Positions 3,335 through 46,164 of a stretch of DNA of 64,000 bases are shown here, piece after piece. The notes under the pieces are model-generated. The model saw only the letters and a program-made list of their open reading frames with translations. It was not told the DNA's origin and made no database searches. The stretch is from positions 39,316 to 103,315 of the forward strand of contig JBKQMU010000083.1 in NCBI GenBank assembly GCA_052146555.1, read 5' to 3'. This DNA comes from Isosphaeraceae bacterium (GTDB lineage Bacteria; Planctomycetota; Planctomycetia; Isosphaerales; Isosphaeraceae). Numbering within the stretch: the first letter of the stretch is position 1; each line of letters opens with the position of its first letter. The position numbers were made by a program, and so were the translations under genes.

Positions 3335-3869
3335 CTTCCGCTCCAATCAACTTGAGCGTAGCCCGATGTGCGTACTGCGATCAACCGTAGTTCCGTTGGG
3401 AGAATCTCTGGCGATTCACACGGCTGCTGCCACTCGATCCTGCTCAGACCTGAATTCTACCGCCGTTCAATTCTAGAGGGACTGTTGCCGCTCACCGAGT
3501 GATCAGGCTAACAGTTTCCGCCACTGTTGCATTCGTCCCTTTGGGGTCGTCGCACTTGACTCTGGCTCGGGGACGACGAGACGGCCGGACCCAGAGCCGT
3601 GTGACACTGCCTGCACAAATGAGGCCAGACGGGTGTGTAATCGTCCCTGTTCACAGGGAAATGCCAAATGCGGGCGGCCCCGCCCCTCCGGTGCGTCGGC
3701 ATCAGGGGGTTGGGGATGTCTCCTTTTGAAAAGGCGGAGACCGCCGCGCGGTGCGGCTTCAAGGAAGCCAGTTCTTACGGGCAAGCGCGGACCGAAAGCC
3801 AGGTAAGATCGCTTACCCCGCACTTCACGTTCCGCCGGTGCAGCCAAGCGCCCGGATCACGGTCTGCAC

Positions 3870-6082: not shown

Positions 6083-6174
6083 GGGTGGCTGGGGCAGAAT
6101 GCCCCAGCAGCCATAACTTGACGGCCACGCGCGGGCATGTCTGTGGTGTCGCTGCCGCTCCACCACAGCCACCC
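6083..6174. repeat. REP-like element, family A (GGGTGGC...GCCACCC termini)
   Basis: GGGTGGCTGGGGCAGAATGCCCCAG...GCTCCACCACAGCCACCC; related copies at 9490, 23974 and 39091. Confidence 0.7.
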
Positions 6175-31530: not shown

Positions 31531-31851
31531 TCACTTCCTCGATTTACGGACCGGCTCGGCTTCGTCGCCGCGCGGTTCTTTGCGCTTTTGACGCTCGGTT
31601 TCGATCGTTGCGGTCGCGTCGAAAGGGGCCGTGGCCGCCTTGCCTTCGGAATCGACGCCAGTGAGCAGTGCCACGGACCGCTCGGCTCGTTCCAGCATGG
31701 CGTAGCACTGGGACAGCAGGCGCACGCCGGTCTCGTACCTGGCCAGCGCCGCGGCCAGGTCTGGCTCGCCGCGTTCCAGCGCCGAGACGATCTCCTCAAG
31801 CTGGCTGAGGGCCGTCTCGAAGGGAGGTTCCTTTGCCTCTTCCGCGGACAT
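31531..31851 (-). CDS. xseB: Exodeoxyribonuclease VII small subunit
   Basis: FETALSQLEEIVSALERGEPDL..ALARYETGVRLL..C...LERAE. Confidence 0.93.
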   Translation of the reverse strand: MSAEEAKEPPFETALSQLEEIVSALERGEPDLAAALARYETGVRLLSQCYAMLERAERSVALLTGVDSEGKAATAPFDATATIETERQKRKEPRGDEAEPVRKSRK

Positions 31852-33495: not shown

Positions 33496-33742
33496 GAGCT
33501 CGGCCTCCTGGTCCGCGAGATTCCCACCGCGCCCGCCAAGCCGCCGCTGCGGCACCCCCGAGCTTGCCCCCACCGACCAGGAGCACTCCCTGCTCGGCCA
33601 TCTCGACAATCCTCCCGTCGGCGTCGACGAGTTGAACCTGCGCACCAGCCTGACGGCCTCTCGGGTCATGGCCACGCTCTGTGTCCTGGAACTGAAGCGG
33701 CTGGTCCGCCGGCTGCCGGTCCACCAGATCATTCGTGTCTGA
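33496..33742 (+). pseudogene. dprA: Frameshifted 3' remnant of dprA (winged-helix tail)
   Basis: ELGLLVREIPTAP..PLRHP / frameshift / ELAPTDQEHSLLGHL..P.GVDEL..TSLTASRVMATLCVLELKRLVRRLP. Confidence 0.7.
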
Positions 33743-34529: not shown

Positions 34530-35399
34530 ATGGGTCGGTCGAAGATCGTGTTTAAGCTCTTTTGCCTGGTTGCTTTCTGGCTTTCGCAGCACGCTGCCGA
34601 TGCCGGGCAGATTCTCACTCCGCTTCAAACCCAATCGATCGCTCCGCCGGGCGTACTCATCCCGACCGACTGGGGGCCGGGGACGACAGGGATCAAGGAC
34701 CCTCTTTCCTTCAACCAGTTCGATCCGAGACTGGGAACCTTGGAGGCCGTCGACGTCACGATGTCGACGACCATCCGGAACGACTACATATTGACCTTCG
34801 TCCCAACGCCGATCGAGACCACCCTCTATGTCGCGACATCGGCGACCTCAGCTCCGAGCATACTCGCCGACCCGTCCCAGAGGGAGAAGCTCACCGACGG
34901 TCCCACCGTGATCCTTAATGCTCCCGATGGCATTGGGCAGATCTTCGGTCCTCCGGCCACGAGGCAGCCGGTTGACTTTGTGACGTTGACCGAGTCCAGC
35001 GGCACATGGCAATCTCAGAATCCCTACGCCCCGAATTTTATTCCGCCCACGGTGACCAATCTGTCGCTCTCGCGCACCCTGGACACTTCAAATGCGCCGC
35101 CCTCGCTGCTGTCTGAGTTCACCGGGACGGGCAAGGTCGACCTACCCCTGACGGCGACGGCGTTTTCGAGCTTCTTCACCGATAGCGGTAATGGCAGCGG
35201 CACCGTGCTCACGACGGCCAATGCCACTGTCACGGTCCAGTACGTCTACTCCATTGTTCCCGAGCCCTCCAGTGCCATTCTCGCGATCCTGGGAATCGGC
35301 ACGACCTGCCTCTTGTTCCAGTTGCGTCGCCGCGCTGTGCAACGCCGCGGCTGCTCAAGCGATCGGAGCCGAACTGGCTCTGACATCGATCACGTCTGA
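34530..35399 (+). CDS. Choice-of-anchor-E-like PEP-CTERM protein
   Basis: Signal peptide; FNQFDPRLGTLEAV, FTGTG, VTVQYVY; VPEPSSAILAILG...LRRR. Confidence 0.8.
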   Translation: MGRSKIVFKLFCLVAFWLSQHAADAGQILTPLQTQSIAPPGVLIPTDWGPGTTGIKDPLSFNQFDPRLGTLEAVDVTMSTTIRNDYILTFVPTPIETTLYVATSATSAPSILADPSQREKLTDGPTVILNAPDGIGQIFGPPATRQPVDFVTLTESSGTWQSQNPYAPNFIPPTVTNLSLSRTLDTSNAPPSLLSEFTGTGKVDLPLTATAFSSFFTDSGNGSGTVLTTANATVTVQYVYSIVPEPSSAILAILGIGTTCLLFQLRRRAVQRRGCSSDRSRTGSDIDHV

Positions 35400-35985
35400 T
35401 CGAGGCAGGCAGCGCGGCGACCTCGTCCTCGCCGGCCACGGTGCGGGCGATGGGTGGATGGCGATCCGGCCCGATAACCGTGGGCTTCCCCGCGCCGCGC
35501 GAACGGGGCCGTGAGGGCCCTCCGATCTGCCAGGGCTCCCTTCTCGGCGCGACCAAAACTCAGCGCCGGAGACCAGGATGGTTTTGGCGAATCGGAGGGG
35601 AGCCGCGATGCGTCTTCGGCTTTATTGCTGATGCTCGAGTTCAGCTAGAACCGACCACACTTCCTGATGGTGCCTCACCGCACTTTGACATCCGTCTGTC
35701 CTGCTTGTTGACTCCTGTCGACGATCGAGGAGAGGACCGGCGTTCCAGGATTGTTCCGTCGTTTGCTGCGGGTTGGAGGTGGGCTTCCCTTGTCGAAGGG
35801 AAGGACCAGCCGCACTTATGCCCGTGCAAATCGGGGGATGTCGCCCCCGAGCCGGGCCTGTGTGCGAGTGGGCCCAACTGAAGCTCACGACGTCGAATCA
35901 CCCGACGGAGGACGTTCTCCGTCGTCGGGCGTCCCATTCCTCAACGACCCGTTCCCTCGACTCGATTCATCTAGGAGCCAGTGCC

Positions 35986-37212
35986 ATGAACGCCGTGGGA
36001 TGGATGTGGCTGCGGCGACTGCTAGAGAGAGCTTTGTACCCGGCGGGAAAGCCGAACCACCGCTCCCAGACGAGGCGGAAGATCGCCCCCAGCCTCCAAG
36101 CGCTTGAGGCCATCGAGCTGCTGAGCACCGGCGCCCCGGTGATAGGCTACCCCTCGCCGCGGTCGATTTACGCGGAACACCACCTGCTTTCCGGCCAAGC
36201 CTCCAAGTTCAACGCCCCTAGCGCCTCAGTCATGAGCGACAGTTCGCCGGTGACCCTGCCTGCGCAGACAGCCTCGATCAGCAACACGCTGACGAATTTC
36301 GCGAACCTGCCCCTGACTCCGGCCCTGAACCTCTTCGACCCATCGCTGGGCACGTTGGCTTCGGTTGTCGTGAGTCACACGGCGGCCATCCAGAGCAACA
36401 TCACCTCGCGGAACCTCAGCCCCACGTCGCCGGCCGACATCACGGCGAGTGTTTCCGGAAGCTTCCAGATCGACGGCCTCAATCAGCCGATCGCGCAGCC
36501 GACGCAGACGGTGACGAGCCAACCCATTTCGGTGGGAGAGTTCGGCTCGGGCAATGACACAGCCACCTTCCCTCCCCTGCAGATCGCGAACTCGTCATCA
36601 GAAACCATCACCGATTCCGCCGGTTTGGCGTTCTACACCGCCTCGCCCGGCCGGGCGTCGATTGCCCTGACGATGACGGCGACGGCAACCGCTTCCGCCA
36701 ACGCACCCAACGGTAATCTGCTGACGACCGCCGAGTCGTTCGCGACTGGAACGGTGACCATCGCCTACACCTACGTCCCTGAGTGTCCCACCGCAGTCGG
36801 TGTCGGCCGGATCGGTCTGCACCACCAGCAGACGCAGCTCGTCGTCACCTACAGTGGCGCAGTAGACCCCGTGCTCGCCGAGAACCCTAATGACTACACG
36901 GTGATCACGCGGGAAGGGAAGAAGATTCCGATCGTCTCGGCGACATATAATGCAGCCACAAATTCGGTGACGCTGATCCCCGCGCATCGGCTCAACGTTC
37001 ACCATCACTTCGTGCTCTCGGCCTTGCCTCCCTGCCCCGACGGCCAGCCCGGAAATGCGCAGCTCATCCCCTTCGGCGGCAAGCAGTCGCTGATTGGGTT
37101 CCACAACCATCGCGGCCAGTTTGTCCCGTTCCATCCCCGCGAAAGTGCTGGGTCCGTGCGCCGCCGCGGCCAGTCCGCCGCAGTCCATCTAAGCGATCGT
37201 TCGCAAGCCTGA
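35986..37212 (+). CDS. Choice-of-anchor-E-like protein with planctomycete LEPRxLL-type N-terminal motif and Ig-like C-terminal domain
   Basis: LQALEAIELLS; FDPSLGTLASV; VTIAYTY; AGGAG RBS before ATG 35986. Confidence 0.72.
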   Translation: MNAVGWMWLRRLLERALYPAGKPNHRSQTRRKIAPSLQALEAIELLSTGAPVIGYPSPRSIYAEHHLLSGQASKFNAPSASVMSDSSPVTLPAQTASISNTLTNFANLPLTPALNLFDPSLGTLASVVVSHTAAIQSNITSRNLSPTSPADITASVSGSFQIDGLNQPIAQPTQTVTSQPISVGEFGSGNDTATFPPLQIANSSSETITDSAGLAFYTASPGRASIALTMTATATASANAPNGNLLTTAESFATGTVTIAYTYVPECPTAVGVGRIGLHHQQTQLVVTYSGAVDPVLAENPNDYTVITREGKKIPIVSATYNAATNSVTLIPAHRLNVHHHFVLSALPPCPDGQPGNAQLIPFGGKQSLIGFHNHRGQFVPFHPRESAGSVRRRGQSAAVHLSDRSQA

Positions 37213-37256
37213 ATCGCTGATCGCCCATCGATTCATTGGCCTGCCGACCGGAAAAG

Positions 37257-37288
37257 GCCCGGCCTCTCCTCAGAGGCCGGGCTTTCTT
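37257..37288 (+). terminator. Rho-independent terminator (possibly bidirectional)
   Basis: GCCCGGCCTCT-CCTC-AGAGGCCGGGC-TTTCTT, with AAAA upstream. Confidence 0.8.
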
Positions 37289-38094
37289 CGTCGCGGGACC
37301 TGCGCGGACGGCCGTGCTGTTGATCCCTGGCAACGCAGGCAATCATTAAGGCAACCAGCCGTTGACTTTTTTCCCAAGGAGGGTTGACCGTATCTCGTGA
37401 TCCGGGTTAATCCTTACGCCCAAGACCCGGCACCAAGACACGGACTTGCTCTGTCAGAGAATGCGATCACGATCGAGGGGTCAACCTGATCCATGTCTGC
37501 CCTCTTGTCGTCGCCAAGCGATCGGTTGCGAATGATAATCGGCGTGTGCAAACCTCAACGGTGGGAGCGTACGGTGGACTGGGTCCTCGCCAATTTAAGG
37601 ATCGACGCCACTCACGGAGGGGATAGTGGAGGGATGCGCATCCGTGATGTCATGGTAGGCCAGGTGGGTGCTGGCCGCGACAGATTCTTGGACTGGGCAG
37701 CCGTTCGAATCGGGGCTCCTGGGGCGGTCGGCATTGATTTGACGGCTCCCTGGGGGCGGCCTACGGTTCCTCATGGAGGGACATCGCAAACCTCACAGGA
37801 CAGCTCGGTTTCTGTCCTCGGACGGTGCGCGGCTCATGCGTGAACCACCCTAGATCGTCGTAGGTTGATGGCCATCCACTGTCCATCTACCGAGCTGGCG
37901 GCTACAGCGCAGACCCCGATCTCTTCGGGATGAGCGGCCCCGTAGGAATCCATCACGACTCAAGCCGAGAGTCGTTCTCCGTTTGATCTTCTTTTGAACC
38001 TGCTTGCCGAGCGGGCTTCCCAGGCACCGTCTTGAGGATCGCGGTACGCGCGGTCCTTGGGCTGGAGAAAGAGCTTCCGCGTGAGGAATCCCAG

Positions 38095-39027
38095 ATGTAT
38101 CGACCGACTTTGCTCAAGCGCTTTTGTCTGCCATCAACCTCTGACCGTCGAAGTCGTCGCCAGTTCACTGCCGCCGTGCTACCACTCGAAGATCGGCGTC
38201 TGCTTTCGACCTCGGCCGGTGGCGACCTGGCCTCGGCCGCGATGACTCAGACCGCGACGTTTCCAAACATCGAGTCACTTCCCAATGTGAGCACTCAAGC
38301 GATCCTGTATTTCAATTCGAACATGGGAACCTTGACTGAGGTGGACTTGGTGACCTCCGGGTCGTTCAGTGCCGAATTCCAGGCCGAGAACCTTGGATCT
38401 ACGGCAACCACAATCAACGCAACGACCAGCGACAATCTATCGATCAACGTCCCGAGCGGAGCGGTGCCGGTGACCATTCCCTCGGTCAACTGGACCCTCA
38501 ATAGCGGCAAGGACTCTGCACCGGTCACGAGTAGCTCCACGCCTCAGACAACGGAGTTGACATCCAGCGCGGATCTCGCCGCCTTCACCGGCAACTTCCG
38601 GATGCCCATCAGCGTGTCCAACCAGTCGACCACAAGCTCAGCGGCGGGCGACGGCGACCTGTCGGCAAAGTTCAATACCCAGACGTCCGCGACGCTCACC
38701 GTCATTTACCACTTCACTCCCAACCTTCCGAGCCTCGATCCGCCTCCAGGCCCAGGCCCGCTATCCTCCACCCCGACGAGCTCCACTTCCCCCATCAGTG
38801 GATCAAGCACCGTCACACCATTACCCTCCGGCACCGTCCAAGGCACAAGCACCCTGCCCGCGACCGGTTCGACCAAGATCGGACTCTCCTCCGGTCACGT
38901 CCAGAAGAACGCCTCCGTGAAGAAGTCGACGCCGATCCATCCGGCTGTCCATCACGTGCTGGCCCGCCATCCACGGCCGGCGGTCGAACATCTTCCAGCG
39001 AAGAAGGCCCATGTGGCCCACACTTGA
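38095..39027 (+). CDS. Choice-of-anchor-E-like protein with LEDRRLLS motif and Ser/Thr/His-rich tail
   Basis: PLEDRRLLS; FNSNMGTLTEV; FTGNF; LTVIYHF; GAGGA RBS. Confidence 0.72.
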   Translation: MYRPTLLKRFCLPSTSDRRSRRQFTAAVLPLEDRRLLSTSAGGDLASAAMTQTATFPNIESLPNVSTQAILYFNSNMGTLTEVDLVTSGSFSAEFQAENLGSTATTINATTSDNLSINVPSGAVPVTIPSVNWTLNSGKDSAPVTSSSTPQTTELTSSADLAAFTGNFRMPISVSNQSTTSSAAGDGDLSAKFNTQTSATLTVIYHFTPNLPSLDPPPGPGPLSSTPTSSTSPISGSSTVTPLPSGTVQGTSTLPATGSTKIGLSSGHVQKNASVKKSTPIHPAVHHVLARHPRPAVEHLPAKKAHVAHT

Positions 39028-39090: not shown

Positions 39091-39200
39091 GGGTGGCTGA
39101 GGCAGAATGCCCCAGATTTGCTGAACCTCAAAACCGCCAGCGACAACTGTGGTGTCGCGTTCGGCCTGTGGTGTAGCGTTCCGCTCCACCACAGCCACCC
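39091..39200. repeat. REP-like element, family A, followed by a 10-bp tandem (C(C/T)ACAGCCCT x3, 39211-39240)
   Basis: GGGTGGCTGAGGCAGAATGCCCCAG...GCTCCACCACAGCCACCC. Confidence 0.8.
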
Positions 39201-39239
39201 AGCCGCTCTCCCACAGCCCTCTACAGCCCTCTACAGCCC

Positions 39240-39368
39240 TCATCCGGCCGTACTTCTGCTGGTCGTGCGGAGAACGCGGCTGGTGATCTGACCGGAAGCC
39301 AGCCGGGTTTGGATGAGGTCGTCGGGCTGGACATCGTCAGGCTTGCGGACCAGGGTCGTGCCGTCGGC
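39240..39368 (-). pseudogene. xseA: Second copy of the xseA 3' end
   Basis: 39265-39368 matches 43519-43622 at 98/104 nt; both encode ADGTTLVRKPDDVQPDDLIQTRLASGQITSRVLRT. Confidence 0.95.
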
Positions 39369-39535
39369 CCACGCTGCCCTCCGTGCACAGATCTCGCAAA
39401 CATTTTCGGGCATTTCCATGGCCATCAAATGTCTTTCGGCCTTATCATAGCGAGGAGGAAATTTTCAGGTCTGAACCAGGTCGAGTGAATACCCAGAACG
39501 GCCTGATTCTATCCCGGTCTCACGGCGAGCGCCCC

Positions 39536-42500
39536 ATGAGCATCGAACTCAGCCTCGAGTTCCCGGATCAGAGCAACGTCATCGTCTCCTACGGGAACGT
39601 CAAATCGGGCGCGCTCGACTTCAAGAACCCACTCACCGCCCAGGACCGCAAAGAGCTCCGCTGGTACCTGGAAGTCTATGGAGCGCACTCGCTTGGCGAT
39701 CCGGACGACCAGGAAGCGAAGCGCATCGCTGCCAAGCTGGAGACCTGGGGCGAGGCACTGTTCAACGCCGTGTTTGGTGATCGCGCGGCGCAACGCCCTT
39801 TCAACGCCTTCCAGGATGCCGGTGACAAGGCTCGCCTGCTCACCATCAATGCCGAGTCGCCGGCCATTCTCGGGCTCCCCTGGGAGCTGCTCTGCGACCC
39901 GGGGCGTGGCGGGGCGTTCCTGTTCAACGAGCACCCGCGAATCAGCATCCGCCGCGGCGTGAGCGGCGCAACCGGTGGCCGCACCCCGTTTGTGGTCAAG
40001 TCCAAGGAGCGGCTGCACATGCTTTTCATCGTCAGCCGGCCCGAGGATGTCCCCTTTCTCGACCCGCGGGCCGATCCCGCCCCTGTGCTCGACGCGCTGG
40101 AGACGCACGCTCCGGGCCGGGTCACGTGGGAGTTCCTCCGCCCCCCGACGCTCGATGCGCTCGTGACGCGGATCGATGACAGGCGAAAGCAAGCGGTGGA
40201 TATCCTCCACTTCGACGGCCACGGTGTGTTCGATACCGACGGCGGCCTGCCGGAGCGGCTGAGCAACCGCACGGTGAATATCGCGCAGGTCCTTTCCGGC
40301 CAGATGCGGAAGGACCTGATCGTGGAGGCTTCCGCCAAGTCGCCGCCGAACATTGGCTATCTGCTGTTTGAAAAGGCGGACGGCCAGCCGGACCTGGTCT
40401 CGTCGGAGAAGCTCGGCTTCAACCTGCACCGCCGGAACGTGCCCTTGGTCATCCTCTCGGCTTGCCAGAGCGCAGCGCAGGGGGACAACGAGGAGCCGCT
40501 GGGCAGCGTGGCCGCGCGACTCACCGCCGCCGGCATCCCCGCCGTGCTGGCCATGACGCACTCCGTGCTCGTGCACACCACGCGGGCCCTCTTCGGCGAG
40601 TTCTACGCCCAGCTCGCCGGCCACCGGGCCATCGGCGAGGCGCTCGACGCTGCCCGCCTCCATCTCCTCAATCACCCGGAGAAATACAAAGTCCAGCGCG
40701 GCCCGGACCGCGTGCCGCTGCGGCTCTACGACTGGTTCGTGCCGTCCTTGTACCAGGCCGGGGCCGATGTGCCGCTCATCCGGGAGGCGAAAGGCAAGAA
40801 GCGGGTATCCGGCGCTGCGCTGGTCGAGCCGCGCTCCAATGTCCCCGCCCGTCCCGAAGCCGGCTTCTTCGGGCGGAAACGCGAGCTGTGGGACATCGAA
40901 CGCTGGTTTATGGGCAAGGCCCGCCGCATTACCATCACCGGTTTCGGCGGACAGGGGAAAACAGGGCTGGCCCTGGAGGCCGCGCGCTGGCTCACTCGGA
41001 CGAAAATGTTCGAGGCAGCGGTGTTCGTGGACTATTCTCGGGTGCAGGCGGCAGACGCGTTATCAGTGGCCGTGAGCAACATCGGCAGCGTGCTGGGTCA
41101 GAGTGTCATCGACGCCAACGCCGCACGCGAGGCGCTCCAGCAGACCCCCACGCTGGTGGTCCTGGACAACCTCGAAGCCGTGGCCGCGGTGCCCTTGCGC
41201 GAGCTGCTCGACGCCGCCAAGGGCTGGTTCGAGGCCGGCCCGTCCCGCGTGCTCCTCACCACCCGCACGCCGGATTTCGGCCACCCGGACTATCGGGTCG
41301 AGGGCACGCTCATTCATCGGCGGATCGTGCTGGACGGACTGGGGAATAAAGAGGCGTCGGATGATGCGCTGGAGTGGTTCGCCGAGCTGTCCAAGCTCCC
41401 GCCGGCGCCGACGCTGCCCACGCCAACGCGCGAGGCGCTCATCGATCTGTTCGACAAGGTGCGGTTCCACCCACTCTCCATCCGTACGCTGGCGGCGCAG
41501 CTCAAGACTTGGCGTCCGGCCGAGCTAGGCGATCGGCTGGGGCAGTTGCTCGCCGGCAGCGCGAGCGGATCGCCCACGGCGAGATCGACCGAGGCCACGC
41601 TCCCCGAGCTGGTCGCCTCACTCAAGCTCTCGCTCGACCGGCTGGACGCCGCCGCCCGACAGGTGCTGCCCCGGCTCGGCGTTTTCCAGGGCGGGGCGTT
41701 CGAGACGGAACTACTGGCCATCACGGGCCTGGAAGATGCGGAAGGGGGCGGAACGAACGTCTGGCCCGACCTGCGCCGGCAGCTCGAAGCTGCGGCCTTG
41801 ATCGAGGCGGAGACGGTGCCGGGCGTGAAGCCGCCGTTCCTGAGGTTCCATCCCACGCTGGCCCCGATGCTCTGGGAGCAGCTTGGCCCCGACGAGCGCG
41901 CCCGACTCACCACCGCTCACCGGCAGGGGTATTATGAGCTCGCCAGCGGCTTGAACTTCGCAGACGACAAGAACCCGCACGAAACACGCGCCATTGCGTC
42001 GCGGGAACTGCCCAACCTGCTCCATGCCGCTGATGCCGCCTTTGATGCCCACGATCCCGACGCCGTGAGCTTCGCGGACAGCCTCACCAAGTTCCTCAAC
42101 GTCTTCGGCCTCAAGCGAGATGCCGAGCGCCTCACCGCCCGGGCGCAGGCCGCATCCGGTGACGAGGGCTCGCCTGCCTGGTACCTGGCCCAGTCGCAGC
42201 GCGGCGAGCAGTTGTGGGCCTCCGGCCAGGCGACCGAGGCGGCCCAGGTCTTCGAGGCCATCCTTTCGCGTCTCGGCGACGCCCCCAGCTACGAGCGTGC
42301 GGTAACGCTGGACAGATTCGGCCGGTGCTTCAGGGCCGGCGGACGGCTGGACCTGGCGGCGGCGCGCTACCGGGAAGGCCTTGAGGTGACTGAGAAGCTG
42401 GAGCAGAGCGATTGGGTGAAAGGTCTGACGTACTCGTTGCACACTGATCTCGCGGACGTGCTGTGCGATCGGGGGCAATACGCCGAAGCGCGGCAGGAAT

Positions 42501-43483
42501 ACGAAACAGGACTCAGGATCGCGGAGGAACTCGGGAACTTGCGTAACCAGGGCGTGACTCTCGGCCAGCTTGGCACGCTGGCCATGCGGGAAGGCAAGCT
42601 TGAGGAAGCACAGGCGCGCCACCGGGCCGCGCTCGCGCTGTTCCAGCAGCTCCGCGAACCGGCCATGGAGGCCGTCGTCTGGCATCTGCTCGGCTTGGTC
42701 TATCAGAAAGCCATGCAATGGGACGAGGCCGAGTGGCACTACCGAGAGGCAGCACGGATCCAAGGGGAAAGGGGCAACATCACCGGCGCCGCCCAGACCT
42801 GGAACCAGTTGGCCAACATCAGCAAGGCAGCCGGCAAGCCGAAAGCGGCGGAGGACTGGTGTCGCAAGGCGATTGAGGCTCGCCGGAAGATCGAAGAGCC
42901 CAAAGAACTAGCACTTTACCTTAACAACCTCGCCAACCTCCTGCAAACCCAACCGGATCGGCTGGCCGAGGCCCGCCAACTGGCCGAGGAGGCGCTGGCG
43001 CTCAAGAAGACCCTCGATCCCGGTGCGGCGGAAATCTGGAAGACGTACGGCATTCTCGCGGAGATTGCGGACAGGGAGGCCGGACTCACGACGAACACCC
43101 GCCGGCAGGCAGAACTCCAAGCGGAGGCGCGGGAACACCGCCGTCTCGCCCGCGAGGCTTTACGCAACTTCCCCGGCGCGCGGCAGGAGCTGCAGGGGCT
43201 CCTGCCGCTGATCGACGCGACCTTGATGGCCGTCCAGGACTCCGCACAACAAGAGAATCCCGATGCCATTCTGAAGGTCTACAGCGATGCCGGCTGGAAC
43301 AAGATCGTCGATGCGGTGCGCCGCATCGTTGGCGGCGAGCGCGACCCAGTTGCTCTCGGTTTGGACTCCGACCTCGATCCCGGAAGCTCGCTGATCGTCG
43401 GAATCATCCTCGCCGCCCTGTCCAACCCCTTCACGCTCTCGGACCTTCTCCCGCCGAATGACGGTCCCAAAGTGGCGAGCTGA
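39536..43483 (+). CDS. CHAT (caspase-like) protease - STAND/NB-ARC-like ATPase - TPR protein
   Basis: LPWELL, ILHFDGHG and VILSACQS (His/Cys dyad); GFGGQGKT Walker A; LVVLDNLE Walker B; about 7 TPRs. ATG 39536 preferred. Confidence 0.9.
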   Translation: MSIELSLEFPDQSNVIVSYGNVKSGALDFKNPLTAQDRKELRWYLEVYGAHSLGDPDDQEAKRIAAKLETWGEALFNAVFGDRAAQRPFNAFQDAGDKARLLTINAESPAILGLPWELLCDPGRGGAFLFNEHPRISIRRGVSGATGGRTPFVVKSKERLHMLFIVSRPEDVPFLDPRADPAPVLDALETHAPGRVTWEFLRPPTLDALVTRIDDRRKQAVDILHFDGHGVFDTDGGLPERLSNRTVNIAQVLSGQMRKDLIVEASAKSPPNIGYLLFEKADGQPDLVSSEKLGFNLHRRNVPLVILSACQSAAQGDNEEPLGSVAARLTAAGIPAVLAMTHSVLVHTTRALFGEFYAQLAGHRAIGEALDAARLHLLNHPEKYKVQRGPDRVPLRLYDWFVPSLYQAGADVPLIREAKGKKRVSGAALVEPRSNVPARPEAGFFGRKRELWDIERWFMGKARRITITGFGGQGKTGLALEAARWLTRTKMFEAAVFVDYSRVQAADALSVAVSNIGSVLGQSVIDANAAREALQQTPTLVVLDNLEAVAAVPLRELLDAAKGWFEAGPSRVLLTTRTPDFGHPDYRVEGTLIHRRIVLDGLGNKEASDDALEWFAELSKLPPAPTLPTPTREALIDLFDKVRFHPLSIRTLAAQLKTWRPAELGDRLGQLLAGSASGSPTARSTEATLPELVASLKLSLDRLDAAARQVLPRLGVFQGGAFETELLAITGLEDAEGGGTNVWPDLRRQLEAAALIEAETVPGVKPPFLRFHPTLAPMLWEQLGPDERARLTTAHRQGYYELASGLNFADDKNPHETRAIASRELPNLLHAADAAFDAHDPDAVSFADSLTKFLNVFGLKRDAERLTARAQAASGDEGSPAWYLAQSQRGEQLWASGQATEAAQVFEAILSRLGDAPSYERAVTLDRFGRCFRAGGRLDLAAARYREGLEVTEKLEQSDWVKGLTYSLHTDLADVLCDRGQYAEARQEYETGLRIAEELGNLRNQGVTLGQLGTLAMREGKLEEAQARHRAALALFQQLREPAMEAVVWHLLGLVYQKAMQWDEAEWHYREAARIQGERGNITGAAQTWNQLANISKAAGKPKAAEDWCRKAIEARRKIEEPKELALYLNNLANLLQTQPDRLAEARQLAEEALALKKTLDPGAAEIWKTYGILAEIADREAGLTTNTRRQAELQAEAREHRRLAREALRNFPGARQELQGLLPLIDATLMAVQDSAQQENPDAILKVYSDAGWNKIVDAVRRIVGGERDPVALGLDSDLDPGSSLIVGIILAALSNPFTLSDLLPPNDGPKVAS

Positions 43484-43499
43484 ACGGACCGCTGCTTGT

Positions 43500-44678
43500 T
43501 CATTCCGAGGTAACGGCCGTGCGCAGGACGCGGCTGGTGATCTGGCCGGAAGCCAGCCGGGTTTGGATGAGGTCGTCGGGCTGGACGTCGTCGGGCTTGC
43601 GGACGAGGGTCGTGCCGTCGGCTTGAAAGGTGAGGCTATAGCCGCGAGCCAGAACGGCCAGTGGGCTCAGGGCTTCGAGCGACGCAGCAAGCTGGGTGAG
43701 GCGGCTGCGGCGATCGTCGAGGCAGATCCGGATCGCGTGGCGGGCCGCTTCGGAGAGCTGGTCGAGGCGGGTGCGTGCTTCCTTGATCCGGGTCTGGCTG
43801 ACGCGATGCAGGCGTTCGGCCAGGCGATCGAGGTGCATGGCGACCTCGCGGCAGTCGGGGACGGCAAGCTCGCCGGCCTCGCTGGGCGTCAGTGCCCTTC
43901 GGTCGGCGGCCAGGTCGGCCAGGGTCACATCGATCTCGTGACCGACGGCCGAGACGACCGGCAGGCGTGAGCCGGCGATCGCCCGGGCCACGATCTCTTC
44001 ATTGAACGCCCCCAAGTCCTCGGTGGATCCGCCGCCCCGGGCGACGATGATCAGGTCGGCGTCTCGCAGACGGTTGGCAAGGTTCACCGCCGCGGCGATC
44101 TCGGAGCCTGCTCCCGTACCCTGTACCCGCGCCGGTGCGATCAGGATCTCGGCGGCGCACCACCGCCGGGCCGTAATCTGAAGCAGGTCACGGACCGCCG
44201 CGCCGGTCGGACTGGTGACGATCACGACCCGGCGCGGAAACCGCGGCAGCGCTCGCTTCCGCTCCGGATCAAAGAGCCCTTCGGCCGCCAGCCGCGCGTA
44301 AAGCTGACGAAAGGCCAGCTCCAGCGCTCCAACGCCCTCCGGCTCGAGGTGGCGGACGACGACCTGGTAATCGCCCCGGGGCGCATAGACCGTCAGTCGT
44401 CCCAGCACCCGCACCGCCAGGCCGTCGGCAAGGTCGAAGGCCAGCCGCTGGGCGTCGGTCTTCCACATCACGGCGCGGAGCGAAGCCAGCGGGTCCCGGA
44501 GGCTGAAGTAGACATGGCCCGACTTGGGCCGCGCCAGGTTGGTGATCTCGCCGGCAACGGCAACATCGCCGAAATCGCCTTCCAGAACGTCCTTGATGCG
44601 ATCGGTCAGCGCTGAGACCGACTCGAACCGCGGTCCCAGCAGGTCGCCGACAGGGCGGAACGAAAAGGCGCTCGACAT
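43500..44678 (-). CDS. xseA: Exodeoxyribonuclease VII large subunit
   Basis: VAGEITNL..SGHVYFSL, VTSPTGAAVRD, IVARGGGSTEDL..FNEE, SAVGHEID, LTPSEA, LSPLAVLARGYS. Confidence 0.97.
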   Translation of the reverse strand: MSSAFSFRPVGDLLGPRFESVSALTDRIKDVLEGDFGDVAVAGEITNLARPKSGHVYFSLRDPLASLRAVMWKTDAQRLAFDLADGLAVRVLGRLTVYAPRGDYQVVVRHLEPEGVGALELAFRQLYARLAAEGLFDPERKRALPRFPRRVVIVTSPTGAAVRDLLQITARRWCAAEILIAPARVQGTGAGSEIAAAVNLANRLRDADLIIVARGGGSTEDLGAFNEEIVARAIAGSRLPVVSAVGHEIDVTLADLAADRRALTPSEAGELAVPDCREVAMHLDRLAERLHRVSQTRIKEARTRLDQLSEAARHAIRICLDDRRSRLTQLAASLEALSPLAVLARGYSLTFQADGTTLVRKPDDVQPDDLIQTRLASGQITSRVLRTAVTSE

Positions 44679-44846
44679 GATTTTGGCCGGTTCCCACACG
44701 AGCCACTTGGTCAGTTCCGTAGCGTGACAGTGTAGCTGCCGCACGGACGGGTGAACAGGCAGTGGGCGGGTCCGCGGTTATCCCTTCTCCCGCCGGGAGA
44801 CGGTAAGAATTAACGCGCGACACCCTCGCCCGCCCACTGCCGGCTG

Positions 44847-45986
44847 TTACTGACCGATCCAATCGTCGTCGTTGAGCGATTCCTTACCGTTCCGGGTCAC
44901 CAGGCCCCGCAGGACGACGACGTTGACAGATCCGGAGAGGAAGCGGACGGCACCATCGCCCATCACGATATTGGCCCCGCCGTTGTGGAGAGAGTAGATC
45001 TCGTCGTCGGCACCGGCGTTTTGGCCCGTCCTGGGGTTTCCAGTACCGTCGTTGTGGTAGGGCTGGGGGCCGTGAGAGGGGCCACCGGGATTATCCGCCT
45101 GCCCGGAGACGCCGATGGCACAGGCCGGCTCGGCCCATCGCCAGTATCGACGATAAACGGCCGTTCCCATCCCCATGCCGGTGGTCATTTCTGTCGCGGC
45201 GGTTGGTGGCATTTGCGTAGAAGGATAGTAGTTGGGATCGTTGGAGAAAAAGCTTGCCAGATAGGCAGACTGGAAGGTGGCGTCGCGGCTGGCGTCCTCG
45301 GCCACCAGGATGGTGGTGGAAAGACCATCGATCACTGCGCCCACTTTCGTCAATCCCTTGGCGAGCAGGCCGTCAGCGCGGGAACTTTGGTTGCGATAAG
45401 GCGTGGCGGGATAATAAGTGCCATCCGCGCGCGTTTTGCCATAAGGGTCGATGTCGGTGTAGTACGTTGGAGCATAGTCGGTGTAGCCGTAGCCGCGGGA
45501 ATTGAGCACCGAGTTGCTGGGCATCATCTGGTCGGTCGGGTCCAGATCGTCCGTGCCGATGTTCGATTGCCTCTGGGCCGAGGGGCAAAGGAGAACCTGA
45601 AAGGCCGTGCCAGCGACTGTGAAATTTTGTCCCCACATCACGTCGTAAGGGAGCTGGAAGTTGTAGCTGTTGTAGTAACCACCCCTGTCGATAAACGCGA
45701 GGAGCCGCGGGAAAACGCCATGGCCGTCCACGAACTGACTCGTGGGCAGGCCGGATGTCGGGTAGTAGGTCGATGCGCCCGCGGGGGGAAATGCCCGGTA
45801 GGCGCTCTCGTAGTTGTGCAGGGCCAGGCCGATCTGCTTGAGGTTGTTGACGCACTGTGCGCGTCGGGCGGCTTCGCGGGCCGTCTGTACGGCAGGAAGC
45901 AGCAGGGCCGAGAGGATGCCGATGATCGCGATAACCACCAGCAGCTCGATCAGTGTGAATGCACGGCGCGAATTCGTGGTTTCCAT
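44847..45986 (-). CDS. DUF1559 prepilin-like protein
   Basis: [48 protein letters not shown]; C-terminal H-x9-DG ([12 protein letters not shown]). Confidence 0.95.
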
Positions 45987-46164
45987 GGCTTTAAGAAACT
46001 CCAAGAAAGGGAAGCTCGGTGTGTACTCTCACGTGAAGCCAGCGACCCCAAGGGGCGCGGTACACGAGTGACAGGACTGTGACCAAAGACGGACGTTTGC
46101 CGGTCTCGCTCGGGAGAGTGCCCGGCAGGCTTACGGTAGGTAGCGGAGTGTCACATCGCTGGGA

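Follow-up and report, generated by a model that had tools for sequence, protein, structure and literature searches.

[quoted passage not shown] Its product is identified as XseA by the catalytic and coiled-coil Exonuc_VII_L region (Pfam, 5e-86), by an OB fold, and by synteny with xseB-ispA-dxs. The likely start is at 44678, giving a protein of 392 aa, the form seen in the database and among other alleles. The last five codons and stop (AVTSE*, 43500-43514) lie outside a 108-nt repeat, one copy of which (43515..43622, reverse strand) forms the adjoining 3' part of the gene in frame, from the codons for ADGTT through those for VLRTA, as determined by repeat search and codon alignment. The gene for the small subunit, xseB (31531..31851, reverse strand; PF02609 match), is separated from xseA by 11.6 kb, whereas in relatives xseB lies downstream of xseA at a distance of only 35-240 nt.

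Convergent with xseA, and with its stop codon 16 nt from that of xseA, is a forward-strand gene (39536..43483, with a likely start at 39536) coding for a 1315-aa protein that combines a CHAT protease domain, a putative P-loop STAND-type NTPase and a TPR array. The CHAT domain (PF12770, 1.7e-23, residues 146-445) occupies the N-terminal effector position, and the TPR array is matched in Pfam at 4e-26. The protein itself has no Pfam NTPase match at E below 0.001; its translation shows a Walker A motif, GFGGQGKT, and a Walker B-like motif, LVVLDN, and its homologs have NB-ARC, NACHT or AAA_22 Pfam matches. PADLOC fits no system model to the protein, giving only a generic hit to TPR and a weak one to SAVED_CHAT. 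This NLR-like protein presumably has a role in defence, in which an anti-phage sensor would be coupled to a caspase-like effector. Upstream of the gene is a cassette-specific region (39369..39535, forward strand) that contains a predicted sigma-70-like site (39419-39448) and has no homology to the sequence upstream of xseA. The gene is present in a single copy in the genome, and a search for paralogous cassettes that could define the ends of the element found none. It is not found in the genomes of 120 other Isosphaeraceae species, and its product is 50-72% identical to proteins from other phyla; the sequence comparisons point clearly to horizontal acquisition from a foreign source.

The insert block, 39369-43514, is 4146 nt long, contains this one gene, and is bracketed by the only family of direct repeats detected, with copies at 39261-39368 and 43515-43622 (108 nt, 94% identity, spacing 4254). 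A whole-genome search finds two copies of the 108-nt segment, both at this locus. Homology ends sharply on both sides of the repeat with no significant extension, a search near xseB yields no significant third xseA remnant, and the repeat search of the locus reveals neither terminal inverted nor arm-like repeats. The copy beyond the cassette (39261..39368, reverse strand), referred to here as the orphan, differs from the copy in xseA at seven positions, six of them synonymous. The original prediction had described 104-nt direct repeats with six third-position mismatches and an identical shared peptide, each copy with its own tail and stop, and this description is borne out: the mismatches are at 39351, 39339, 39333, 39291, 39273 and 39270, each is a synonymous change at codon position 3, and the same six codon pairs are recovered (CTG/CTC, CCT/CCC, GAT/GAC, GGT/GGC, GTT/GTC and CTC/CTG). 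Both copies encode ADGTTLVRKPDDVQPDDLIQTRLASGQITSRVLRT, followed by AVTSE* in xseA and by TSRSTAG* in the orphan. The seventh difference lies at the edge of the repeat, outside the 104-nt stretch, at 39263 (ACC/GCC, Thr/Ala). The longest perfect identity is a 41-nt core (39292..39332, corresponding to 43546-43586), which offers homologous recombination its longest substrate and is also the place at which k=31 assemblies break; the repeat's 5' edge has a further perfect stretch of 17 nt.

By the Nei-Gojobori method there are 6 differences in 29.7 synonymous sites and 1 in 78.3 non-synonymous sites (dS 0.24, dN 0.013), and the chance that six of six differences would be synonymous is 4e-4, or 2e-3 for six of seven. 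An allele resembling the orphan also exists, in agreement with the prediction that two functional xseA alleles lie behind the copies: the xseA of strain X8, on a contig that continues into the body of the gene, agrees with the orphan at 39351, 39333 and 39273. The case that would have refuted the prediction, with no allele matching the orphan, thus does not apply. At 39291 and 39339 the orphan has T residues peculiar to this genome, and the tail of the X8 allele has no convincing match to either tail type. Because all six differences are synonymous and orphan states occur in a real xseA of another strain, the two 108-nt copies evidently descend from distinct xseA alleles that were both functional.

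The orphan ends in a tail and stop of its own, TSRSTAG* (39240..39260, reverse strand; from the translation). This tail type also occurs in contigs from X10 and X12, two of the runs, and on any simple insertion model the orphan's tail is the native xseA end in displaced form. Linkage of TSRST-type tails to an xseA body was not obtained in the low-coverage contigs of the runs searched, and when both tails, together with the DNA downstream of each, were compared with relatives, no detectable similarity emerged that would identify the native tail. The orphan lies within a 62-aa open frame (39240..39428, reverse strand, from the list of open reading frames) that is divergent from the CHAT gene and has no Pfam match. 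Downstream of it is a dispersed REP-like repeat with tandem units (39091..39242; arms at 39091-39115 and 39182-39200), including three tandem GAGGGCTGTA units at 39213-39242 whose number differs among strains. Further towards xseB are three forward-strand genes for choice-of-anchor E / PEP-CTERM surface proteins (34530-35399, 35773-37212 and 38032-39027; NCBIfam NF033208), which are absent from the same site in relatives. These genes (34530..39027) represent an earlier layer of accessory cargo in the stretch from the orphan to xseB.

With a source genome of 365 contigs from metagenomes, and a 41-nt perfect core that makes k=31 graphs ambiguous, the duplication could have arisen by misjoining of two strains' xseA alleles during assembly. 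Independent assemblies of four soil metagenomes (Logan contigs) argue strongly against this, as both inner junctions are present in them with a 100% match that is broken only at the core. One Logan contig covers 39303-43575 without a difference, and the depth of the cassette equals that of its flanks in all four samples. A 218-nt contig from an unrelated study joins the orphan tail, the repeat and the CHAT upstream flank (39233-39436), and contigs of unrelated studies span the orphan with both of its flanks. The same junction of orphan and CHAT upstream flank recurs in related strains sampled by other studies, so the duplication is not an assembly artefact, an explanation to which we give almost no credence.

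Relatives at 75-81% protein identity have a single xseA end followed by xseB, and across relatives the site between the two genes holds either nothing, the genes being adjacent, or other cargo. Two xseA alleles that are 95% identical are followed by different CHAT, SEFIR-TIR or TPR genes. The proposal that cargo is swapped at xseA therefore holds, and the xseA-xseB interval is, on these comparisons, a strain-variable hot spot in this Aquisphaera-like planctomycete. Close xseA alleles that have AVTSE-like tails (RTAVTLD, RRVVASD and VDTSE) have a convergent STAND-TPR gene next in every case, and thus the type of tail travels with the cargo. A second xseA tail was looked for and not found in 12 genus or family relatives and in 9 metagenome relatives; a second xseA fragment in one relative (G018) was rejected as a truncation at a contig end. 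Neither a near-identical cassette-free strain nor a donor locus was found among the indexed runs and in the metagenome scan, the latter returning only 80% relatives and one incomplete 95% contig. In the contigs, which are interrupted at the 41-nt core, no circular form is seen. The orphans of other strains have repeats identical among themselves, and the same haplotype occurs in a genuine xseA elsewhere. Between strains the orphan repeat shows 2/108 differences, with 6-12% divergence in the flanks, and the junction, being common to strains that differ by 4-12% in flanking DNA, is an old and stable arrangement.

No tyrosine or serine recombinase was detected on the 137-kb contig by PF00589 and PF00239 searches and Pfam scans of open reading frames, so that the absence of an integrase noted in the original prediction extends from the cassette to the 11.6-kb island and the entire contig. 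More than 25 tyrosine recombinases are encoded elsewhere in the genome. Three more apparent integrase-free insertions are present in the same genome, at ftsY, amt and rrf2, bracketed by 107-171-nt repeats of the neighbouring genes; one of these repeats is an internal piece of the gene and two extend past the stop codon. Repeats also flank radical-SAM genes on two other contigs (C59 and C119), but these probably reflect duplication of precursor or leader regions, a different phenomenon, and were excluded.

The reading that we tentatively prefer, at a probability of about 0.45, is that the cassette came from a related strain and integrated through xseA homology, leaving the orphan end behind. 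The one-gene cassette (39369-43514) would have inserted within the last codons of xseA, which stays intact because the insert provides a new five-codon tail and stop, and the displaced native end (108 nt, the TSRSTAG* tail and the REP-like sequence) would persist on the far side. Entry could have been of Campbell type, with one crossover integrating a circular molecule, or it could have combined homologous crossover at one end with illegitimate joining at the other (39368/39369); we infer both that xseA homology travelled with the cassette and the type of crossover. Entry from a related strain is the most economical explanation because no recombinase is present in cis and the copies represent two alleles. 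It is also consistent with the relatives in which xseA and xseB are adjacent or hold other cargo, with a foreign, single-copy cargo gene, with the tails that accompany STAND-TPR cargo, with the independently verified junctions and with the three further bracketed insertions. Against it stand the failure to find a near-identical empty site, a donor locus or a circular form in the runs searched, and the 108 nt at 94% identity, with a longest perfect run of 41 nt, which make a poor RecA substrate. The insertion also predates the split of the strains, and since it is old there has been ample time for later allelic exchange to make a two-allele pattern without any cassette-borne xseA. The orphan repeat is, moreover, better conserved than its flanks, which would not be predicted for a passive scar.

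Insertion with long target duplication, described for restriction-modification genes (2000, Gene 259:99; Furuta, Abe and Kobayashi 2010, PMC2853133), is a possible but more doubtful account, in which a cassette without xseA sequence duplicated 108 nt of the recipient xseA and a homologous patch later replaced the 3' part of the functional gene. Such inserts have no mobility gene and lie between direct repeats, tens to hundreds of target bases long, which often extend over a stop codon and thereby preserve the target gene, and a cycle of insertion, amplification via the repeats and release has been proposed for them (PMC2853133). They are defined by repeats >30 bp that are not high-copy, an insert <20 kb, no mobility gene in or next to it, and alignment of both repeats to one copy at an empty site of a related genome (PMC2853133). 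The 108-nt repeats, the 4146-nt one-gene insert, the two genome copies and the contig free of recombinases agree with all but the last of these points, for which the relatives offer a single xseA end followed by xseB at 75-81% protein identity. The anatomy of this known class is thus like that of the xseA locus in its long repeats over a gene end, its lack of mobility genes and its defence cargo (PMC2853133), and the three similar insertions with repeats of variable length and the old junction common to diverged strains are also in its favour. The uniform orphans of other strains and the genuine xseA with their haplotype fit an orphan that has retained the original allele, and a long target duplication, with ordinary allelic replacement later at the 3' end of xseA, gives the same picture as 108 nt borne by the cassette. 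It needs two events where one suffices, however, and no empty site was found with which to match both copies to a single target. The present locus also differs from restriction-modification inserts in its NLR-like CHAT-STAND-TPR cargo and planctomycete host, and in having copies that differ only synonymously over 104 nt, a pattern that points to a pair of alleles and not to the duplication of a single target.

It is unlikely that the cassette is a remnant or cis-mobilisable integrative element with the repeats as attL and attR of a recombinase that targets xseA, a replacement gene end being carried and the integrase lost or acting in trans. A duplicated 3' gene end with mostly synonymous differences and an intact gene is the classical signature of such elements, the 17-nt perfect stretch lies where a core is expected, tyrosine recombinases are plentiful elsewhere in the genome, and alleles with 95% identity have distinct STAND cassettes at this one site. 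But the recombinase is lacking from cassette, island and contig alike, the surveyed relatives have no second xseA tail, terminal inverted and arm-like repeats are wanting, and the other bracketed insertions involve unrelated genes and repeat lengths. We consider it very unlikely that the orphan is maintained rather than a scar, either as a 62-aa mimic of the XseA C-terminal domain or kept xseA-like by gene conversion. The open frame does have its own start region and stop, several changes within it are synonymous (39246, 39396), and the repeat differs so little between strains; these numbers are very small, though, and come from low-coverage contigs that may mix strains, there is neither a family match nor frame-specific RNA evidence, and the replacement of an entire codon (39384-39386) looks unconstrained, as do the non-synonymous variants of run X15. 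More speculatively, and improbably, the repeats could be working parts of an integrase-free mobility cycle common in the lineage, in which host homologous recombination would loop the cargo out and, once transferred, it would re-enter a related genome at the same gene end with its own tail, the orphan being actively kept by gene conversion or as an XseA-tail mimic partnering the NLR-like gene. If true, this would explain the conservation of the orphan and would make the ftsY, amt and rrf2 cases further members.

Several familiar systems share parts of this anatomy. The e14 element and phage 21 in icd of Escherichia coli carry a substitute 3' end that keeps the gene intact, leaving an orphan native end with mainly synonymous differences, and have their own integrase and site-specific excision. 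The xseA locus is similar in its new tail and the orphan end beyond, but unlike them has no recombinase in 137 kb. The CIMEs of streptococci have cargo between att-like direct repeats at the 3' end of a gene and no recombination genes, and descend from ICE and IME families whose integrases are known and whose att cores are short, whereas the xseA locus shows no partner element and no recurrent core. Homology-facilitated illegitimate recombination is a process of naturally transformable bacteria known only from laboratory transformation systems; with xseA as its homologous anchor and an illegitimate join, it would yield just the structure seen here, in which the gene has an end of donor type and a piece of the recipient's is kept. 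The pan-genomes of E. coli and Pseudomonas contain hot spots flanked by core genes, with varied defence cargo and often no mobile-element genes, from which the xseA locus differs in keeping a physical scar, the orphan gene end, of one cargo's entry.

The idea of integrase-free entry has already been proposed for restriction-modification genes (PMC2853133), and a new mechanism is not established here; the locus is a real case of a known, little-studied form of recombinase-free gene gain. Defence genes are often located in core-gene hot spots lacking any mobile-element gene, and their route of arrival is poorly documented. Here the scar is legible, in that a substitute tail kept a repair gene whole, the displaced end survives, and two xseA alleles of the population met. 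The gain of an NLR-like immune gene would accordingly be tied to recombination between related strains and not to an integrase. This would extend a phenomenon known for restriction-modification genes of a few competent bacteria to another class of immune genes and to the Planctomycetota, with at least three further cases in the same genome available for comparison.

A single direct-repeat pair is present in the window, at 39261-39368 and 43515-43622 (108 nt, 94% identity, spacing 4254 nt), and a whole-genome search of the 6.7-Mb assembly recovers exactly these two copies. The right-hand copy belongs to the reading frame of an intact xseA gene, at its 3' end (43500-44744, minus strand; Exonuc_VII_L 5e-86 plus an OB fold); the left-hand copy is an orphan, also on the minus strand. 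Similarity ends abruptly at both repeat boundaries. As the original prediction described, each copy has a separate tail and stop; the tails are AVTSE* in xseA and TSRSTAG* in the orphan. The prediction also reported six mismatches within 104 nt (CTG/CTC, CCT/CCC, GAT/GAC, GGT/GGC, GTT/GTC and CTC/CTG), and all six are indeed synonymous and at codon position 3; a seventh difference, Thr/Ala at 39263, is at the repeat edge. Codon-based counting gives a dS of 0.24 versus a dN of 0.013, and six of six synonymous changes have P = 4e-4 under random placement of substitutions. The longest perfect run between the copies is a 41-nt core (39292-39332, equal to 43546-43586).

The source genome is assembled in 365 contigs, which made it necessary to rule out a strain chimera. 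Four soil metagenomes from one study yielded separate Logan contig assemblies that are identical to the locus and interrupted only at the 41-nt core, and a single Logan contig (39303-43575) starts within the orphan, crosses the entire cargo gene between the repeats, and ends in the xseA copy. Read depth of the cargo in Logan contigs equals that of its flanks. Metagenomes from other studies contain strains 88-96% identical, in which one contig covers the orphan tail, the repeat, and the CHAT upstream flank (39233-39436), and further contigs connect the repeat with this flank. The recovery of these junctions in independent assemblies and diverged strains shows that the duplication is genuine and predates the split of these strains. 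An assembly artefact is excluded for practical purposes.

The proposed xseA allele test was possible in miniature, using contigs of other metagenome runs with related strains. At 39351, 39339, 39333, 39291, 39273, and 39270 the window orphan has G, T, T, T, T, and C, the window xseA has C, C, C, C, C, and G, and the orphan in run X10 has G, C, T, C, T, and C; in runs X12 and X7 the orphan contigs reach no further than the right-hand part of the repeat, where they match X10 (39339 C). Two of the six differences are thus recent private C-to-T changes in this genome's orphan. A contig from run X8, which extends into YSLTFQ and the gene body and is therefore a genuine xseA, has G, C, T, C, and T at the first five sites (39270 lies outside the contig), the same haplotype as the other strains' orphans at every site covered. 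The orphan therefore stems from a natural, functional allele, and the predicted origin from two xseA alleles holds; the proposed refuting outcome, that no allele would match the orphan, did not arise. In the orphan repeat, 2 of 108 positions differ between the window and X10, compared with 4-12% in neighbouring DNA and 2.6% in xseA. This conservation is unexpected for a neutral relic, which should rank with the most diverged segments. With counts this small and contigs this short, recent recombination, gene conversion templated by xseA, and constraint on a 62-aa frame (39240-39428) are all candidate explanations.

The cargo gene (39536-43483, plus strand, 1315 aa) is convergent with xseA, with 16 nt between the two stops, and encodes a protein in which a CHAT domain at the N-terminus is followed by a P-loop region (GFGGQGKT, LVVLDN) and an extended TPR array. 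It is present once in the genome, and no close homologue was found in 120 other Isosphaeraceae species. Full-length homologues with 50-72% identity occur in Polyangia, Thermoanaerobaculia, Gemmatimonadota, Pirellulales, Methylomonas, and others, including variants in which TIR or SEFIR replaces the CHAT effector, a distribution that points to a modular NLR-like gene passed on by horizontal transfer. No PADLOC system model covers the protein, and we infer a putative defence role from its architecture.

In a simple insertion the continuation of the far copy is native and that of the near copy is the insert edge, so that TSRSTAG* and the REP-like region beyond it would be the old xseA end, and AVTSE* a tail brought by the cargo. 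No protein ending in TSRSTAG was found in a large protein database, and XseA tails among database proteins vary freely downstream of SRV. In keeping with AVTSE* as a cargo-derived tail, three other alleles have AVTSE-like tails: RTAVTLD and RRVVASD, both in alleles at 95% protein identity, and VDTSE, in a transcribed relative. All three precede a convergent STAND-TPR gene or its homologous 3' flank. The cassettes themselves differ: one has TPR and SEFIR/TIR genes and, as a protein of its own, a 420-aa CHAT, and identity across the shared NTPase-TPR part is only 76%. The tail type therefore moves with the cargo family. In JGI sample 3300047160 one strain has CHAT420 and SEFIR/TIR-STAND-TPR genes after LipA on the same strand, on a contig that stops 9 nt past the TPR gene, and another has the same gene types behind xseA on the opposite strand, suggesting that the cassette was inverted or relocated together with xseA. 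Both contigs stop at the edge of the cassette, the pattern that assembly-breaking repeats would produce.

Database names and the DUF1559 and PEP-CTERM genes place the host, a planctomycete, in the Aquisphaera group of the Isosphaeraceae. Across twelve genus or family genomes and eight metagenome contigs the gene order is AMP-ligase-like gene, LipA-type acyltransferase, xseA, xseB, ispA, dxs, with an xseA-xseB gap of 35-240 nt or with other cargo (Ig-like proteins, a metallo-beta-lactamase fold protein). In the window xseB (31531-31851) is 11.6 kb from xseA, and the gap contains, from xseA outward, the cargo gene, the orphan, a REP-like repeat, a variable tandem repeat, three choice-of-anchor E/PEP-CTERM genes, and a low-GC stretch. 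The tandem repeat (39213-39242) comprises three GAGGGCTGTA units directly after the orphan's stop, and a related strain in run X15 is 20 nt shorter here, so the copy number differs between strains. The REP- or MITE-like dispersed element (39091-39115 and 39182-39200; also 6093-6174) has two conserved arms and a variable centre, at least 10-13 genome copies, and very high depth in some soil metagenomes. The low-GC stretch, located between xseB and the choice-of-anchor E genes, carries an orphan dprA 3' fragment (33540-33742, plus strand) that retains the C-terminal winged helix and the stop (Pfam DprA_WH, 3.7e-12). At the protein level this fragment shares about 77% identity with the real dprA of the genome (contigs C141/C342), and it represents the second displaced gene end of the island. 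Between LipA and xseA lies a second strain-specific insertion adjoining xseA, a DUF1559/N-methyl gene (44847-46004, minus strand) with about 0.9 kb of flanking DNA; gene and flank are missing in all genus relatives and in metagenome contig L043, which is 95-98% identical. Together with the variable xseA-xseB gap, this identifies the xseA neighbourhood as an accessory-DNA hot spot.

The data fix the outcome of cassette entry but not its path. We prefer entry of related-strain DNA by recombination using xseA homology, at a probability somewhat below one half (about 0.45), since a single event economically accounts for both alleles at once. One possible route is a Campbell-type single crossover with a circular molecule that carried about 108 nt of xseA and a tail; an equally possible one combines homologous crossover within xseA and illegitimate joining at 39368/39369. 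Less probably, a long target duplication arose upon insertion, followed by allelic replacement of the 3' part of xseA; this anatomy is documented for restriction-modification genes (PMC2853133), and is made plausible by the age of the junction and by three more recombinase-free insertions in this genome, bracketed by 107-171-nt repeats of a piece of the neighbouring gene. The ftsY case, a putative insertion relative to the genus, has direct 171-nt repeats (94% identity; contig C55, 3399-3568 and 7874-8044) made up of the gene's 3' end and the first 20 nt beyond its stop. The 4.3 kb between them contain an 804-aa patatin-like gene and an alpha/beta-hydrolase; the orphan copy is frameshifted and carries non-synonymous changes, and C55 encodes no recombinase. 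Repeats of an ammonium transporter (amt) 3' end and downstream hairpin (C233, 40148-40274 and 43240-43367) enclose two genes, and an internal 107-nt piece of an Rrf2-family regulator (C94, 30370-30476 and 33546-33652) encloses an FAD oxidoreductase.

An integrative element of the e14 or phage 21 type, since decayed or mobilised in trans, seems improbable: the classical signature fits, but there is no recombinase, recurrent core, or second case in relatives. As originally predicted, Pfam scans of ORFs in and around the block detect no recombinase; none of the genome's 32 tyrosine-recombinase and 5 resolvase family matches lies on the window's 137-kb contig, and a repeat search found no terminal inverted repeats at the block. 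The sequence CGACGGCAC (Asp-Gly-Thr codons) is present at the 5' edges of the xseA repeats (43606-43622 and 39352-39368) and of the ftsY repeat (C55, ~3409-3425). Its presence in both is probably due to chance, given the GC-rich genome, but its relative position is equal in the two. The short contig C303 has a 100% identical 127-nt terminal overlap (1-127 and 2540-2666), which marks either a circle of 2.5 kb or overlapping assembly ends.

The 41-nt perfect run would permit rare RecA-mediated loss of the cassette, and because the arrangement is kept across strains such loss is not frequent. A cycle of insertion, repeat-mediated amplification, and release was already proposed for restriction-modification insertions (PMC2853133), from which this locus differs in the class of immune gene and in its planctomycete host. 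To that picture it adds a clean synonymous-only signature, which implicates two population alleles, and several sister cases within a single genome.
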